A DNA stretch of 24,931 nucleotides, taken from assembly GCA_937965925.1 (NCBI GenBank), contig CALCME010000033.1, forward strand, positions 1 to 24,931. Direction: 5' to 3'. Positions 3,316 through 24,931 of this stretch are shown in pieces (position 1 is the stretch's first letter; the number at the start of each line of letters is the position of its first letter). Origin of the DNA: Candidatus Absconditabacterales bacterium (GTDB lineage: Bacteria; Patescibacteriota; Gracilibacteria; Absconditabacterales; Absconditicoccaceae). The notes below the pieces were generated by a model, which saw only the letters and a list, made by a program, of their open reading frames with translations, did not search any database and was not told the origin of the DNA. The translations under genes and the position numbers were made by a program.

Positions 3316-3365
3316 AATTACTGAGATAGACTACGTAGTAAATCTAGTCTACATTATATAATAAT
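3316..3365 (+). repeat. Copy A of a 50-bp dispersed element (core GATAGACTACGTAGTAAAT, 3325-3343)
   Basis: 19-bp core identical to the reverse complement of 21983-22001; flanks also similar. Contains the palindrome ACTACGTAGT and the dyad TAGAC-N15-GTCTA. Confidence 0.85.
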
Positions 3366-3425
3366 TTGTATAATAATTAACTAGAACAGAAATTGCACCT
3401 TTATCATGAAGTTCTCATTAACTCT

Positions 3426-9781: not shown

Positions 9782-10456
9782 CTAATCTAACGTATCTTTA
9801 ATCAGTCAAATGAATGATCTAATTTCATGTTCATATTTCTCCACATAATATTTCAAATCATAGGTAAACATAGCAGGATATAGCTTCATTTCCTCTAAAA
9901 GATCATCAAATGTATAATATAATAATCACATCGCTTCCTTATCAATATTTTTAAGTCTTCATCAGTAAACACCCATATAAAGGTATTTCTTATTCGCTAT
10001 CGTAATAGTTCATTCTTTCATTTGTTTATCCATCATTATAATATCTGTATCTACATGGCTAATAATTGCTAATGTTTTTACATAGTCTTTTAATAAACGT
10101 AATCTTTGCTCAAAATCCTCTTCTTCCTTTACGACTAGACTAGGACACTGAAGCTCTTCTACCGTCTCAACCATTACGGTATAGTCAATTGGATCTCAAT
10201 ATTGTACATGTCATCCTACAGCTTTATCAAGAAGTCAAGGATTATGATTCTTGTGTTTTGAACGCTTCTGGATAATTAAATCTCATGATTCATTAAACAA
10301 AAAAACATCAATTACACTTACAGCCATACTTGGTTTTCAGGTTTCAAGAAATTGCTTAGTTTGCTCAGAGTAGAACTTACTTCTATCATATGTAATTGCT
10401 CATTTATGCTTATTTCATAGAATCCAACAAATAACTTGTTCTGTTTTTGACGACAT
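9782..10456 (-). CDS. Nudix hydrolase (IDI/YfcD-like), paralog B, 224 aa
   Basis: VFLFNESGDLIIQKRSKHKNHNPGLLDKAVGGHVQYGD...VETVEELQ; open to TAG 9782-9784. Confidence 0.85.
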
Positions 10457-10492
10457 GTATATTTCAACAATAAAAATAATGGAGGTTAAGTT

Positions 10493-11164
10493 TTAGACAA
10501 CAATTTTCTTTATCAAAGAGATAAATGATCTAATATCCTTTTCGTAAGTTTTTAACATATACTTTAGATCATACGTAAATAACGCAGAATGATCTTGTAT
10601 TTCACGTAAAAGATCATTGAAATCATAATACAAGATTCACATTGCTTCTTTATCTACATTTTTAACTCTTCATCAATACACACCAAAATATACATAGATT
10701 TTATTTGCAATTACAATTGTTCATTCTTTCATTTCTTTTTCCATGAGAACCGTATCTGTATCAATATGACTAAGTACAGCAATAGTCTTTACATAATTTT
10801 TCAATAATCAGAGTCTTTGTTCGAAATTTTCTTCATCTTTAACGACAAGACTTGGTGCTTGAAGTTCTTCTACTGTTTCAACCATAACTGTGTAATCAAT
10901 GGGATCTCAATATTTTATATGACCTCAAACAGTTTTATCTAACAGTCATGGATTATGATTCTTATGCATTGCACGTTTTTGAATCAAGAGTTCTCAAGAC
11001 TCATTAAACAAAATCACATCGACTATACTCACGACCTTAGTTGGAGTTGCGTTATCAAGAAAAGCTCTTGTTTGTTCCTCATAAAAGTCGCTTCTATCAT
11101 AAGAAAACGATCATTTGTGTTTATTCTCTAAATCCCATACGATTACTTGTTCTTCAGTTGACAT
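10493..11164 (-). CDS. Nudix hydrolase (IDI/YfcD-like), paralog A, 223 aa
   Basis: VILFNESGELLIQKRAMHKNHNPGLLDKTVGGHIKYGD...VETVEELQ; open to TAA 10493-10495. Confidence 0.85.
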
Positions 11165-18664: not shown

Positions 18665-19708
18665 ATGAATACACGTAAAACGTTACTAAGTAACATGAAC
18701 AGTTCTATTTTTTCCTTTTTCATTTGAGTTCTTATCATGCTATGACTTTTGGCATGATGCTCAAAACAGCTTTCTGCACCATCATGATTTTTTTGAATGG
18801 TGTATGATAAGCTCCCAAAACACTCTCTGGTTAGCATTGTTCAGAAAATTGAATCAACACCTTCTTTTTCAGCAAAACAACAGTATGAATCGACTCGAGC
18901 TATACTTCCAGAATTACTCGACTGATATGTTAATCAAGATTCAGAACTAACCTGAGACTTACATATTGAGGTACATTCTGAAGGAAATCACTATGATTCA
19001 TACTCATATAGTATAGATTTCGATATTCTAGCTAATTGATTCCTTTCAAAAAAGAAGAAACTCAACATACACTGAAATATACTCATTATACTCAAAGACA
19101 ATTCATTATATACCTATATAGAATCTCTTGAATATACACCTGTAGGAAATGAATTACAGTCAGTCCATCTTCGATGACTCTTACTCAAAAGATATAAAGA
19201 GACTCGAATACGTCGAGATATCCCTACTCAAATAGGTTATTTCGTCCCTACTCGACGAAAAGATCGTATCAATTCAAATATGATCTCATCGCATATGGTA
19301 TCTAATATGAGTAATGGTTGGTATGCTGCAACAACTGGAGAAACACTATGGTTGGAGGATACAATTACTGAACTAACTGAACATATCGATATAACACTAG
19401 TTCCAGAAAAACTCGCGATTTCACTTATACACGATAGTGAGGAGAATAAACAGAAGAAAAAATCATATATCACTGATATACACACAACAGGAGATATACA
19501 TATATCATCAACTTGAACAACTCAATTTTCATCATCACGTTCAGGATATACATCATCGTTCGATTGAAATATTCTGATCCCATCAGGTATAAAATCAACA
19601 CTTTCATTTGACTCAACATATACGCCAGTAAGGGTAAGTAAACACATACCCCTTCCAGTAAGTTTCATCGAATGATCAACAATATTAGTAGATCAAATTT
19701 CTAATTAA
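18665..19708 (+). CDS. Predicted lipoprotein of unknown function (347 aa; alternative start 18695)
   Basis: Basic N-terminus, hydrophobic core and lipobox LAG-C (TTG GCA TGA TGC, 18749-18760); open to TAA 19706-19708, includes track ORF 19280..19516. Confidence 0.8.
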
Positions 19709-21258
19709 GTGAGTGGTTCTAGCTCATATCATCAGGAGACATCCTTTACAGTTCGTCATTCATTCGTAATCTGTTCTCTAAGAGAATCAGCTTTTTCATA
19801 CTCTTTTGCTTTCTTTGCAGATTGACGTTGCTCAGCTAGTTCCTTAATAGAATCTGGAGCATCAACATTTTTTTGCGTAAGGACTTCTTTCACGAGATCT
19901 ATGAGTCATATCTTTAAGATAACTTGATCAAGAAGCAAAGCATCCATCGCATCTTCATGTGACGATCATGCGTGAGAATGAAGAAGCGTAAGAACCGAAA
20001 CCGTATCAAGATCATCAGCAAGAGATGCTTCTGCCTTTTTATACAAAGGATACGGGACATAACTATCCAGAAGCTTAATATCTTCTAACGAAACTTGTGA
20101 ACTAATTTTTTTTGCTAAATTTGATCTCGTTTTTTTTGCGCTTTCCATTGCTTCCCAAGAAAAATCAAGGAAGTTTCTATAATGTCAGGTCAGATAGAAA
20201 TATCTTAGGTCAAGAGCATCATATCACTTAGCGATAATACCTGGAATACTTAAATCATCTCATTTAGACTTACTCACCTTTCATCCATCAATATTAAGAA
20301 ATTGATTATGCATTCGTCGATTTACCCATTTTGAACATCATAAACTACATTCTGCTTGAGCAATCTCATTGGTATGATGAACCGTAACATGATCAATTCA
20401 TCACGTATGTATATCAATATGTTTTCATAGCTCTGCATTTGCCATTGCACTACATTCTATATGTCGTCAAGGAAATCATCTTAAACGTTCTTCTTCATCG
20501 GTTACTTCAGATCTTTTTACAAAAACAATATCTCCTTGGTAATCACTTTTCAATCTAAAATCGTTCTCATTAAACGTGTCGTCAACGACCATTGCTCAAC
20601 TCCTGTCTCCATCATACACCCATTCCATAGATCTTTGCTCATCTTTTGGTGATATTTTCCAGAGTGCAAAATCCGAGAGATTTCTTTTCTTACTCGAATC
20701 GATTTTTGCACCATCTCATCTATGATCAGAATTCATTCACTCAAAATCTAGCTGTGCAAGTTTTCCATAGTCTTGTACTTTGGAGGTATCCATATATACC
20801 CCATCTCATTCTATAACGTATGTGAATCACTTTTCAGTAAGTGCTTGTACCATATCGATCTGTTCTTGAATATATTCTGTAGCTCTTGTATACACATCAG
20901 GATGAGAAATCATCAACTCAGACATATACTTCTTGAAGTTGTTCTCATACATTCTCGCAACTTCCCAAACCGTCTTATTCTCTCTTCTCGCTCACTTTTC
21001 CATTTTGTCTTCTCATTGATCTCCATCATCTGTCAAGTGTCCAACATCAGTAATATTCATAACATGATTCACTGTATATCATCATACAGACCTAAGGGTT
21101 GATTTTAAGATATCTACAAACATATATGCCCTCATATTTCAGATATGAGGATCTCCGTAGACAGTAGGTCCACAACTATATAGCTTTATTTCATCTTTAG
21201 AAAGAGGAACAAAGAGTTCTTTACGACGAGTGAGGGTATTATACAAATGAATGTCCAT
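19705..21258 (-). CDS. cysS: Cysteine--tRNA ligase (517 aa)
   Basis: [70 protein letters not shown]. Confidence 0.97.
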
Positions 21259-21396: not shown

Positions 21397-21912
21397 CTAA
21401 TCACTACAAGATTCTTGAATCTTGGTAGCATAACTTCTCGCGTATCACTCATAGACCTGTCTACTTTTTGTAAACTGCTCTGATGAAAATGATTCTAACG
21501 ATTCCAATCTCTTTTTTGCCTGTTCTAATGTCTTTACGTTCACACATTTTCAAGCATCCATTGTAGAAATCAGTTCTTTAAAATATCTTTCAAGCTCGTG
21601 TTGTTTCCTTACCTCTTCACCATTTTTCCCTGTTATGTTTCAGAGAAAGACTTCTGCTTTCTGAAGAAGAACCTCTACTCCTGCGAAGATAGATGTTTTT
21701 TCTGCAGGATGCGTCTTGAGATAGTTAAAAGCAATAACCAAAAGAATACATCATATGATAAATTCTACCATGTTCATGCGAAATCTTTTCTTCTTTTCTG
21801 CAAGACTTCATCTCATTTCTAGAAGAGTGTCATCTACATTATCTGTTTCAATATGTACTTCATTTACATTATTTTCGTTCTTTCATTCAAGAGTAGTTGC
21901 TTCCGTAGACAT
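21397..21912 (-). CDS. Hypothetical single-pass membrane protein (171 aa; possible GTG start at 21918)
   Basis: Acidic N-terminus, TM MVEFIIGCILLVIAFNYL, helical C-terminal part with two Cys; open to TAG 21397-21399. Confidence 0.8.
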
Positions 21913-21960
21913 AGACACTAATAATATAGTAAATAAACTTTAAATTTGAATGTATAGTAA

Positions 21961-22010
21961 ATTAATATTGAATTTAGACATAATTTACTACGTAGTCTAT
22001 CGCCGTAAAT
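21961..22010 (-). repeat. Copy B of the 50-bp dispersed element (core 21983-22001)
   Basis: Reverse complement ATTTACGGCGATAGACTACGTAGTAAATTATGTCTAAATTCAATATTAAT aligns without gaps to 3316-3365. Confidence 0.85.
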
Positions 22011-22133
22011 GCAATTAAGAACTTCTATTTGGTCTAAATGTAAGAGTACTTTAAACGTCTAAATTTATATGCGATATACTATAATAAATTGCAATCACAA
22101 TACTGATATTTGAAAAGAACTCAAAGAGAAAAT

Positions 22134-23288
22134 CTACCTAGTTACTCTTTTATAGTTCCCATACCAGTCATCAAAAGATCCATCTTCTATCTTCGTTTGC
22201 ATACGACGCATAAGACGATAATAGAAATCTAAATTTTGAAGCGTTGCAAGACGTTTACCAAGAAGTTCTTTTGCTCTCATCAAATGTCTTAGATATGCTT
22301 TGGAGTACGTACGTAGCTCTGGAATGATGGAATCTGGAGAGATTGGGGAGAAATCAAACTCATATCTCTTCCCAACAATACGGACACACTCATAATGATT
22401 CTCATCTACTTCAAATATCAGTGATCAATGACGAGCACTACGAGTCGGATAGACACAATCAAACAAATCGATTCATGCTGCAACACACTGCACTAGTTCT
22501 CTTGGAGTCCCGACTCATAACAGATGACGAGGCTTATGAGCTTCTAGAATGGTAGTCTGTGTTCTCACTTCCATAAGAGTTGTCTCTTCAGAGTTTGTAT
22601 TACTTGCGATTCATCAAATAGAATATCCAGGAAAATCAAATTCTTGAATAGACTCTGCATGAGCTTTACGTATGTCTGGATAATGCATTCATTGTGGAAT
22701 TCATCGAAGCATAGGCATAGATCCGTCTTTGGTATAGTCAGGATGTAAGTTCTCCCGTTCCTGTACTGCTCTCCTCATCCATCTATCAGTTCTACGCACC
22801 GAATCCCATGTCTCATTCACCGAAGGCTGTGCTGGTAAGACATGGTCTAGGATAAGCGCTACATCTGATCATAAGGTCGTTTGTATTCTCATACTTTCTT
22901 CAGGAGAAAGAAAGTACTTCTTTCCAGATCTTTCCTCACGAAACATCACCCCTTCTTCAGTTATCTTACGTAATGCTCAAAGACTAAACACTTGATATCC
23001 TCATGAATCAGTCAAGATAGGTTTATTCCATGAATTAAATGCATGTAATCATCATGCAGCATCTATAACCTTAGTTCAAGGTCTTACCCATAAATGATAT
23101 GTGTTTCACAGAATTATCTCAGCTCACAACCTAAGCATATCTTCCATAGAGAGCGCCTTGATAGCTCCCTGAGTTCCTATTGGCATAAAATTTGGCGTCT
23201 GCACAACTCCACGAGACATGGTAACCTCGCCGCGACGAGCCATCGTTTTTGTTGATTTTGCTTTGATGGTAAAAATTCAGGAAGACAT
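22134..23288 (-). CDS. tgt: tRNA-guanine transglycosylase, atypical (384 aa)
   Basis: [72 protein letters not shown]. Confidence 0.95.
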
Positions 23289-23446: not shown

Positions 23447-24931
23447 CTAGTTCACAATAACCATCGCATGATGATCAATATCCAATCCATCTTCATTATG
23501 TAACATAACTCAAACGTTTACCCATGGGGCAGGTCAGAGATTTGGAGCATACGTAAAGGATCAACCACTGTCAGTGGACGTATAAAATACGTCCCTACTT
23601 CCTGCTGTATCCTCAAAACATATCGCTACCTCACTATTTGGTTGACTACTCGTTCATGCAATAACGGTTGGACTCAGATCTGTGATGACGAAGTTTTTGC
23701 TCGTATCATGTAATGGAGCATCGTCTCGGCAATATTCTATTTTACATTCTGATGAACATCAGTCATGAGAAGTGAGATTACCATCATCGCACTCTTCATC
23801 TACGTCTATAGTTCAATTTCAACAAGGAGCACAGCTCGAAGCTGGAGTCAAGAGATTTCATCCTATGATACTAAACTCTGGTGATACGGCTCATCAAGGA
23901 CAAGAATGAGTTACTCATGAACCTATTCAATAGCAATCTAAATCTTGATATCATGAAAGATGTCCTGGTGCCCAGAGGATTTCCAGGGGATCTATAGTAC
24001 ACAGAGCATTTGACATCCAAAGAATTTCTATCGGATACTTCCCTGGTTCTGGAAAGGTCACTCGGTGATATTGCTTTCGATTTCATCACGGTGATTCGGT
24101 CAACCGACTATACTCAAATAATTGATTATCTCATATAGTCAGACGTAAACCATCATTCACATGAGATCAAATAGTTCGTTCGACTGGACTTCAAGGAGTT
24201 CATGGAACATTCAGAAATCATGTAAGACGCATCGCATTCAACTGTGTAGTTTGCGTTGGTCGAGAAGCTCATCAAGGAAAATTCCCCGGTGATGTACAGC
24301 TAGGAGAAAGGTAAGAATAATCAAGCGCAGGTTGAATATTTCACGTACTACTATACATAATATCGTTGAGCGTCATATCATCTAATCTTTCTATATAATG
24401 AGGAAAATTTTCTTCGTTGTATGCTATTGGTCAAGTTGAAAGAGAGACTGCTTCTTCACAAAGTCCTATAATAACAGGCTCATCTACGAATTCTCAGCTT
24501 TTGTCTCAGGTATCAAGGATATTCTCGCACAATGTTGGGGATCATCAATCACACACAAATCCGTCATTAATAGTACAATCATTCGCACACCCATCATCAT
24601 TTTCGACATCTCAATCATCGCATTCTTCACTTCACTCCACTCTTCAATTTCCACAATAAACGGTCTCGACTTCTCCACAATATTCTGTTGCCCAGGGTGA
24701 TCATGATCCATCACCACTCGCTCTTATATAACATTGAAAATCATATGCGTCACTAGTTGGGATGGTATATAATACAGGGTTATTTGTTGTATATCGTGAA
24801 AAAGCATCTCGTGTAGTGGATGATATTGGTTTCGCTCTCATCGCATATAACTCAGCATAGGTTCCATCACACGACATCTCAACCTGATCTCACATTTCCA
24901 GTTGAGTTCAAGAAACATCTACTCATCACAA
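23447..24931 (-). CDS. C-terminal part of a large extracellular protein with two myxococcal-type Cys-rich repeats (DUF4215-like), a PA14-like domain and a terminal Ig-like domain (partial, starts beyond the window)
   Basis: Frame open from 24931 to TAG 23447-23449. CGNGRVEGSEECDDGDVENDDGCANDC (24655 down) and CGNGTIDVDEECDDGNLTSHDGCSSEC (23824 down); between them RLTGFLNVP...HVNDGLRLTIG...GKYPIEILW. Confidence 0.88.

Follow-up and report, generated by a model that had tools for sequence, protein, structure and literature searches.

A tRNA-guanine transglycosylase homologue with a rebuilt base pocket and no zinc ligands in a Candidatus Absconditabacterales genome

We analysed a stretch of 24,931 nucleotides from a Candidatus Absconditabacterales bacterium (assembly GCA_937965925.1, contig CALCME010000033.1, forward strand, taken whole), here called the window. 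Near its end lies the gene of a homologue of tRNA-guanine transglycosylase (TGT), which we name TGT2 (protein P0001; P0002 is its database copy). Under translation table 11 the window contains only two open reading frames (ORFs) of at least 100 amino acids. When TGA is read as glycine (table 25) it is densely coding, with long frames on both strands. TGA occurs 16 times in frame in the TGT2 gene, repeatedly inside conserved glycine motifs (TDSGGYQ, GNTYH, LLGVG), and the genome encodes a tRNA-Gly(UCA); therefore, the organism uses table 25. The gene and its pocket, catalytic and former zinc-site positions are listed below, the residues being mapped by alignment of P0001 to the TGTs of Escherichia coli and Zymomonas mobilis (Zm).

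22134-23288, minus strand: TGT2 (P0001), tRNA-guanine transglycosylase homologue of 384 amino acids, read with TGA as glycine; zinc-less Patescibacteria subfamily
23007-23009, minus strand: Asp94, retained equivalent of the catalytic general acid/base Zm Asp102 (TDSGGYQ)
22839-22847, minus strand: Asp148-His149-Val150, corresponding to Zm Asp156-Glu157-Cys158; guanine-binding Asp kept, Glu replaced by His, Cys by Val; invariant in the TGT2 clade
22686-22694, minus strand: Gln199-Gly200-Met201; Zm Gln203 retained, then Met-His-Tyr against Ala-Gln-Phe in the parent family
22593-22616, minus strand: Gly225-Gly226-Ile227-Ala228-Ser229-Asn230-Thr231-Asn232, rebuilt 7-substituent loop, corresponding to Zm 229-235 with one inserted residue
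22515-22526, minus strand: His255-Leu256-Leu257-Gly258, corresponding to Zm Tyr258-Leu259-Met260-Gly261; common to the whole zinc-less subfamily
22458-22460, minus strand: Asp277, retained equivalent of the catalytic nucleophile Zm Asp280 (DLFDCV)
22314-22331, minus strand: Ser320-Ile321-Ile322-Pro323-Glu324-Leu325, former CxCxxC zinc motif; Zm Cys318, Cys320 and Cys323 replaced by Ser, Ile and Leu
22236-22238, minus strand: Gln351, in place of the fourth zinc ligand, Zm His349

A remodelled TGT pocket had been noticed in this sequence by an initial annotation, which placed it at 22596-22850. That range covers residues 147-231 only and leaves HLLG outside; the gene lies on the minus strand and has to be read with code 25.

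P0001 passes both the NCBIfam Tgt equivalog TIGR00430 (390.2 bits, cutoff 306.75) and Pfam TGT PF01702 (391.6 bits), and falls below the cutoff of the ArcTGT model TIGR00432 (110 bits, cutoff 350). Its closest relatives of solved structure are the E. coli TGT, a full-length match (E = 1.6e-89), and the Z. mobilis TGT. The AlphaFold (AF2) model has a predicted local distance difference test score (pLDDT) of 90.2 and a predicted template modelling score of 0.91, and superposes on Z. mobilis TGT structures, including the covalent tRNA complex 1q2r, with TM-scores of 0.88-0.91 (Foldseek). Both catalytic aspartates are present, unlike in QTRT2, where Cys and Glu stand at these positions (PMC6165067). 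The guanine-face residues Asp148 (Zm Asp156), Gln199 (Gln203) and Gly225/Gly226 (Gly229/Gly230) are also kept, as are the tRNA-contact motif PTRxxRxG and, by inspection, the dimer-interface aromatics (Zm Phe92, Tyr330, His333).

All four zinc ligands are replaced (Zm Cys318, Cys320, Cys323 and His349 by Ser320, Ile322, Leu325 and Gln351). The zinc site is treated as a hallmark of TGTs (PMC6165067, PMC3074131), an older paper claims an 'absolute conservation' of its residues (PMC3074131), and the metal of this subdomain is said to help to form the tRNA-binding scaffold (PMC6165067). In the model of P0001 the former zinc subdomain has pLDDT 90-98 and no metal.

The preQ1 sub-pocket is formed by Cys158, the Leu231/Ala232 switch backed by Glu235, Val233 and Met260; of these residues, Ala232 alone is retained in TGT2. 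In the rebuilt loop, which is modelled at pLDDT about 76, Leu231 has become Ile, Val233 Ser229, Gly234 Asn230 and Glu235 Asn232, and Thr231 is inserted. The DHV, QGM, GGIASNT and HLLG substitutions listed in the initial annotation were each reproduced in the alignment to the E. coli and Z. mobilis enzymes. Its reading of GGLAVGE as GGIASNT had the substitutions and the loss of Glu235 right, and overlooked the one-residue insertion, by which Glu235 aligns with Asn. The larger pocket that it proposed is not apparent: Ser is smaller than Val233, but Asn for Gly234, the extra Thr and Met201 are larger.

The effects of some of these positions are known from mutants. The Cys158Val substitution increases KM(preQ1) 10-fold in Z. 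mobilis TGT and leaves KM(guanine) unchanged, and its E. coli counterpart, Cys145Val, increases KM(preQ1) 55-fold (PMC3660597, PMC3074131). Glu235 backs the Leu231/Ala232 peptide: with Glu235 deprotonated the carbonyl faces the 7-aminomethyl group of preQ1, and with Glu235 protonated the peptide NH is exposed toward N7 of guanine (PMC3660597). Since TGT2 has Val at 158 and has lost the Glu235 partner of the peptide switch, preQ1 should bind to it poorly, and a substrate other than preQ1, as suggested initially, seems likely. Queuine binding requires residues without side chains at 233/234, represented by Gly232/Gly233 in human QTRT1 (PMC6165067), and bacterial queuine salvagers have GG[LS][AS]G, that is, Gly at 233 (PMC11570991). 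TGT2 shares Val158 with queuine-type enzymes (Val150) and has Ser229 and Asn230 at 233/234, so that the known queuine solution is absent. Thus the queuine-type assignment considered in the initial annotation stands at Val158 and fails at both glycine signatures, in agreement with its own remark that the substitutions go beyond known queuine-type enzymes. Judged from its sequence, TGT2 is a bacterial Tgt by profile, yet it departs from this class at the zinc site and in the preQ1 sub-pocket, and does not carry the queuine-type signature.

Among the matches from 5.8 billion proteins, the TGT2 type is represented by four clusters. LDHV, QGMHY and GGIASNTN were found only in P0001 and in P0003-P0005, which are 66-79% identical and form the TGT2 clade. 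P0003 and P0004 have Trp at conserved Gly positions, that is, TGA was translated as Trp; therefore, their source organisms also use code 25. The top 120 homologues beyond this clade are 46-59% identical to P0001 and all have no zinc ligands. They bear the names of Parcubacteria, Paceibacterota, Patescibacteria or SR1 metagenome-assembled genomes. All of them share (R/K)HLLGVG, IPQG and DxFDCVY, and nearly all have LD(E/Q)(C/L/A) and (I/V)GGVANGGEP; the DHV position of the parent family is occupied by DEC, DEL, DEA or DQC. As HLLG and the zinc loss are common to homologues outside the clade, they are traits of the subfamily. Hence HLLG, initially taken as a mark of the pocket of this gene, has to be set apart from DHV, QGM and GGIASNTN, which alone are clade-specific.

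A quick maximum-likelihood search gave a tree in which the TGT2 clade has support 99 and is nested in the zinc-less family (support 100). It is sister to P0030 and lies far from the canonical SR1 clade (support 100). We then compared the TGT2 clade with 44 parent sequences, taking as clade-defining those positions that are fixed in both groups but different. Eleven of the 16 clade-defining changes lie within 39 pocket positions chosen a priori, where 1.6 would be expected (P = 9e-9), so the pocket is indeed remodelled, as had been noted; the loss of all four zinc ligands had passed unmentioned. Within the clade, at 66-79% overall identity, neither the remodelled motifs nor the catalytic and guanine-face residues vary. 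Since the substitutions are concentrated in the pocket and the motifs do not vary, the sequences point to a directed, conserved change and not to decay.

In a profile survey of 200 Patescibacteria, the zinc-less type was found in seven genomes, essentially of one family, and it is the sole TGT there. The profile of the subfamily scores its own members at 680-717 bits, TGT2 at 516 bits and canonical TGTs at no more than 454 bits. A search of genome contigs for loci related to TGT2 returned solely canonical TGTs of Bacteroidota, and a search of metagenome contigs returned no member of the TGT2 clade.

Other pocket variants occur within the zinc-less subfamily. The corresponding motifs are LDEIS/QGMG/GGIAPQHNT in P0030 and LDSLP/QGAR/GGMAMGPEP in P0107, P0113 and P0117, a repeated diversification of the base pocket.

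The window is contig C33 of a bin (G000) that is 66% complete with an estimated contamination of 1.4%. It is a part of the core chromosome, with genes for GlmS, LigA, Lgt, PBP1, HolA, XseA and cysteinyl-tRNA synthetase (CysRS). Mis-binning of this contig was considered and rejected, as the bin has no second copy of its single-copy genes, it lies centrally in composition, it shares the REP family with 15 other contigs, and the identity of its CysRS to the orthologues of relatives declines with kinship. The neighbourhood of TGT2 contains the following features.

19705-21258, minus strand: cysteinyl-tRNA synthetase, syntenic anchor, 53-64% identical to same-genus orthologues
21397-21918, minus strand: TM173, small membrane protein, the last syntenic gene before the insertion; order CysRS-TM173-MBL in four same-genus genomes
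21947-22093, strand not assigned: REP-like dispersed repeat of about 135-147 bp, by repeat matches; directly downstream of TGT2, left edge of the insertion
23447-24931, minus strand: gene of a Cys-rich secreted repeat protein with DUF4215, cut by the contig end; G+C content (GC) 0.397, like TGT2; same genome-specific block as TGT2

The gene order GT2-XseA-hypothetical-CysRS-TM173-MBL is conserved in four genomes of the same genus, where TM173 is directly followed by the MBL-fold gene, a NUDIX gene and HrcA. In the bin the MBL, NUDIX and HrcA genes reside on contig C8 and are separated from TM173 by TGT2 and the DUF4215 gene, an arrangement found in the window genome only. The repeat at the left edge has 18 matches on 16 contigs of the bin, up to 93% identical, and none in 268 kb of the same-genus genome G003; it also occurs in the window at about 3318-3367. 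A P0001-type gene is missing from all 140 other species representatives of the order, every other match being at most 41% identical; each of them has a canonical zinc-binding TGT. No other genes of the window reach the GC of TGT2 and the DUF4215 gene, and the share of TGA among Gly codons is smallest in TGT2. Given the absence of such genes from the order, the genome-specific insertion, the higher GC and the lower use of TGA for glycine, TGT2 appears to have been acquired horizontally. A scan for promoters and terminators around the gene yielded counts indistinguishable from those of shuffled sequences.

The DUF4215 gene may be very large, or there may be two tandem genes, broken over two contig ends by internal repeats (window 23447-24931 and C8:9307-11559).

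The bin contains another TGT gene, on contig C65. It is canonical, with LDVC, QGG, GGLSVGE, YLMGIG and an intact CxCxxC...H zinc site. In the tree it is almost identical to the TGT of G003, and C65 has 90.5% nucleotide and 95% protein identity to that genome. When the bin was compared with the 268 kb of G003, most contigs had 65-75% nucleotide identity, and C65, C70, C87 and C100 had 83-94%. Four gene pairs are duplicated: genes on these contigs are matched by separate copies of far greater divergence on other contigs of the bin (the C65 membrane protein on C134, the C87 Lgt on C33, C70 genes on C22 and C108), and no REP copy was found on the four contigs. Because of the G003-like identity, the duplicated genes and the absence of the repeat, C65, C70, C87 and C100 belong to a second, G003-like SR1 organism, and the second TGT of the bin is a binning artefact.

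The native tgt slot of the window organism is empty. In every relative, tgt is head-to-head with a membrane protein gene, which is single-copy in each of them and 54-57% identical to the copy on C134. Contigs C73 and C134 join by an exact overlap of 141 bases, and in the joined sequence this membrane protein and an 83% identical counterpart of the gene that lies beyond tgt in the related genome G002 are only 923 bp apart. This gap, of 29% GC, contains no tgt remnant. As the ancestral slot is empty and the canonical TGT of the bin comes from another organism, the simplest reading is a replacement: the native tgt was deleted, and TGT2 was inserted elsewhere. Thus the tacit initial view of TGT2 as the drifting own TGT of this lineage gives way to a foreign zinc-less gene in place of the native one, with close relatives that have canonical TGT, QueA and QueH.

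QueA was found in 21 of 24 sampled genomes of the same family, among them the four same-genus genomes, three of which also have QueH; of the same-family genomes searched for QueH, six of 15 have it. YhhQ is sporadic in the family, and no true QueC and no QueG were found in the sampled genomes. Close relatives thus combine canonical TGT, QueA and QueH, and by its gene content the lineage probably salvages preQ1 and matures it to queuosine. The initial annotation had seen no que genes in the window. A bin-wide search for QueA, QueC, QueF, QueH, QueG and YhhQ was empty too, in a bin that is 66% complete; around the expected QueA and QueH slots the flanking genes either differ between genomes or are truncated where contigs end. 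Among five genomes of the zinc-less family, QueA occurs in one and YhhQ in one, and a closed genome of 1.3 Mb has neither. The window genome has tRNA-Tyr, tRNA-Asn and tRNA-Asp with U33-G34-U35. We found no paper that links candidate phyla radiation (CPR) bacteria, SR1 or Gracilibacteria to queuosine or queuine, nor one that describes zinc-less TGTs.

The reading that we favour, and hold with somewhat more confidence than doubt, is a xenologous replacement. The canonical zinc-binding TGT with its preQ1-type pocket would have been replaced by TGT2 from the zinc-less Patescibacteria subfamily, an enzyme probably active on tRNA, no longer suited to preQ1, and with a possible preference for an acceptor-bearing base. 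TGT2 is most likely a tRNA-guanine(34) transglycosylase of GUN tRNAs (Tyr, Asn, Asp, His). Attack of Asp277 on C1' of G34 would give a covalent enzyme-tRNA intermediate, with Asp94 in the role of acid/base; the incoming base would be bound at its 2-amino-6-oxo face by Asp148, Gln199 and Gly226. The rebuilt 7-substituent sub-pocket (Val158, Ser233, Asn234, the extra Thr, Asn235 and Met-His-Tyr after Gln203) would make preQ1 a poor substrate. As Asn at 235 should favour the NH-out form of the peptide, and not the carbonyl-out form needed for a 7-aminomethyl group, the preferred base may have a hydrogen-bond acceptor at position 7. It could be preQ0-like, or the enzyme might perform plain guanine exchange. 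Such a base may be salvaged from the host, and neither QueA nor QueH would be needed.

Several points weigh against this reading. The assignment of Asn232 to Glu235 is based on alignment of a loop with a one-residue insertion and pLDDT of about 76, and may shift. The polar Ser/Asn/Thr/Asn side chains could equally well bind the diol of queuine. The preference for a preQ0-like base is tentative and leans partly on the E235Q enzyme of Z. mobilis, in which an amide at 235 reportedly shifts selectivity toward preQ0. The junction of C73 and C134 depends on an assembly overlap of 141 bases and may reflect a graph fork or strain variation. Finally, the missing third of the genome could contain queA, queH or a canonical tgt that has moved.

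Four other explanations have to be compared with the replacement. TGT2 might insert host-derived queuine directly at G34, as QTRT1 and the Chlamydia-type bacterial TGTs do. Val158, the failure to find QueA, QueH, QueG or de novo genes in the 66% complete bin, and the polar Ser/Asn/Thr/Asn residues, which could form hydrogen bonds with the cyclopentenediol, agree with this; so does the parent family, which is mostly 'tgt-only' (QueA in one of five genomes) and keeps Gly-Gly-Glu after the inserted Asn. However, the bin yielded no YhhQ/QPTR transporter, and the equivalent of Glu235 is lost, although it is reportedly present in known queuine-type enzymes. This residue backs the carbonyl-out form described for the 7-aminomethyl group of preQ1 (PMC3660597), a group that queuine carries too, and it is present in the aligned eukaryotic-mimic Z. 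mobilis mutant. The defining Gly233 is absent as well, with Ser and Asn standing there (compare PMC11570991, PMC6165067). Overall we consider queuine salvage unlikely. An ordinary preQ1-type function, with substitutions that are compensated or neutral in a divergent scaffold and with queA and queH in the unassembled third of the genome, would explain the score above the Tgt equivalog cutoff, and QueA in 21 of 24 same-family genomes, QueH in three of four same-genus genomes, QueA in one genome of the zinc-less family and the 66% completeness of the bin leave room for it. We regard it as decidedly unlikely, since Cys158Val alone costs 10- to 55-fold in KM(preQ1), Glu235 is lost, the concentration and conservation of the pocket changes point to selection for a new specificity, and there is no obvious gain from exchanging a working native preQ1 enzyme for a foreign equivalent.

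TGT2 and the C65 protein might instead be true paralogues of one cell, forming a heterodimer like QTRT1/QTRT2 or serving a second substrate. The two genes share a bin whose contamination is estimated at 1.4%, and both proteins have the dimer-interface aromatics Phe92, Tyr330 and His333. The C65 TGT as a paralogue in the same genome was nevertheless rejected by the tree, by contig-wide identity (90.5% to G003 against 65-75% for most contigs), by the four duplicated gene pairs split in the same way and by the absence of the REP family from C65-type contigs. In addition, the window organism has a tgt locus of its own, which is empty, and TGT2 retains all catalytic aspartates, unlike QTRT2 (PMC6165067). 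We thus consider two TGTs in one cell very improbable. The least probable of the alternatives is that TGT2 is no tRNA enzyme or no enzyme at all, being retargeted to DNA, like DpdA, or to protein, like Cap10, or a decaying remnant. Retargeting of the TGT fold has precedents in DpdA (PMC10484667) and Cap10 (bioRxiv 10.1101/2025.04.06.647259), and TGT2 has lost the metal that is said to aid the tRNA-binding scaffold (PMC6165067). On the other hand, the match to E. coli TGT is full-length, PTRxxRxG is kept, and the zinc-less type is the sole TGT in each genome of its lineage. No dpd, CBASS or preQ0-synthesis genes are present in the window near TGT2, whose neighbours are CysRS, the small membrane protein and the DUF4215 protein. 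A remnant is contradicted by the intact ORF, the motifs invariant across the clade and the confident model of the former zinc subdomain.

Replacement by a zinc-less TGT, which we continue to prefer, places TGT2 between several known systems. With the Tgt proteins of E. coli and Z. mobilis it shares the TIM barrel with a C-terminal subdomain, the catalytic and guanine-face residues, PTRxxRxG, the dimer aromatics and the equivalog score. It differs from them by the absent zinc site, by the rebuilt preQ1 sub-pocket (Val158, Ser233, Asn234, the extra Thr, Asn235, Leu260, His258) and by its apparent horizontal acquisition at a site where no relative has tgt. With queuine-type TGTs (QTRT1 and the Chlamydia trachomatis type) it has in common Val158 and the setting of a reduced organism that depends on a host and whose bin yielded no QueA, QueG or QueH; however, TGT2 has no Gly at 233/234, which makes room for the cyclopentenediol, no Glu235 and no zinc site, and the search for a QPTR/YhhQ transporter was negative. 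Of the zinc-less Patescibacteria subfamily, annotated simply as Tgt, TGT2 has the loss of zinc ligands, (R/K)HLLGVG, IPQG, the 229-235 loop longer by one residue, DxFDCVY and the nested position in the tree. The parent has LDE(C/L/A), QGAQF and GGVANGGEP, with Glu235 kept, against LDHV, QGMHY and GGIASNTN(S) in TGT2, and TGT2 lives in code-25 genomes, with in-frame TGA at Gly positions. The Z. mobilis mutants Cys158Val, Val233Gly and Glu235Gln (PDB 4gd0, 4hqv, 2z1v) retain the zinc site and the native loop length, whereas TGT2 naturally combines the Cys158Val change with an amide at 235 and adds Ser233/Asn234, the inserted Thr and the changes after Gln203. With the preQ0-inserting ArcTGT and DpdA it may share a preference for a preQ0-like base, but PUA and C-terminal domains are absent, dpd genes do not adjoin it, and it is much closer to bacterial Tgt.

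A wider possibility, which we put forward tentatively and consider rather unlikely, is that the zinc-less TGTs of Patescibacteria are a distinct undescribed lineage that re-tunes its pocket time and again, with at least three variants (TGT2, P0030 and P0107/P0113/P0117), and that TGT2 installs a 7-deazaguanine that is neither preQ1 nor queuine. Candidate bases would be preQ0, a 7-amido or 7-carboxy derivative, or another host-derived base, and bacterial tRNA would then have a wobble modification for which there is no earlier description. The zinc site and the residues of the preQ1/queuine pocket are treated as hallmarks of a much-studied enzyme. A zinc-free lineage with a rewritten specificity loop and the catalytic machinery kept would widen the known sequence space of base specificity, and the engineered mutants Cys158Val and Glu235Gln would gain counterparts from nature. 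The TGT2 case also suggests that host-dependent CPR bacteria can change the scavenged intermediate of the queuosine pathway by a transglycosylase swap. For annotation, caution is needed, as automatic pipelines label all such proteins 'Tgt', and the genome that seemed to have two TGTs was a binning artefact.

Some further observations concern the TGTs of related bacteria. In other lineages of the class or family, the otherwise canonical-type TGTs L011, L014, L016, L020 and L031 are missing some or all of the zinc cysteines; because of this, the zinc site seems to have been lost several times in the phylum Patescibacteria. The native TGTs of Absconditabacterales (L017-L032) mostly have LDVC, with Glu157 changed to Val, and GG(L/V)SVGE, with Ala232 changed to Ser; the Ala232Ser mutant of Z. 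mobilis TGT has a 100-fold lower kcat (PMC3660597). In many genomes of one SR1 genus (g39) and of others, the match to TGT falls into two parts (residues about 10-107 and about 107-366) within one open frame, for example at G046:C16:12279-13373, as if about 20 residues had been inserted behind the TDSGG region.

Elsewhere in the window (9782-11164), two tandem NUDIX paralogues adjoin Lgt. The same Lgt-NUDIX-NUDIX set occurs in G002, where, in contrast to the window, it is contiguous with the CysRS region, which points to a rearrangement in the window genome.

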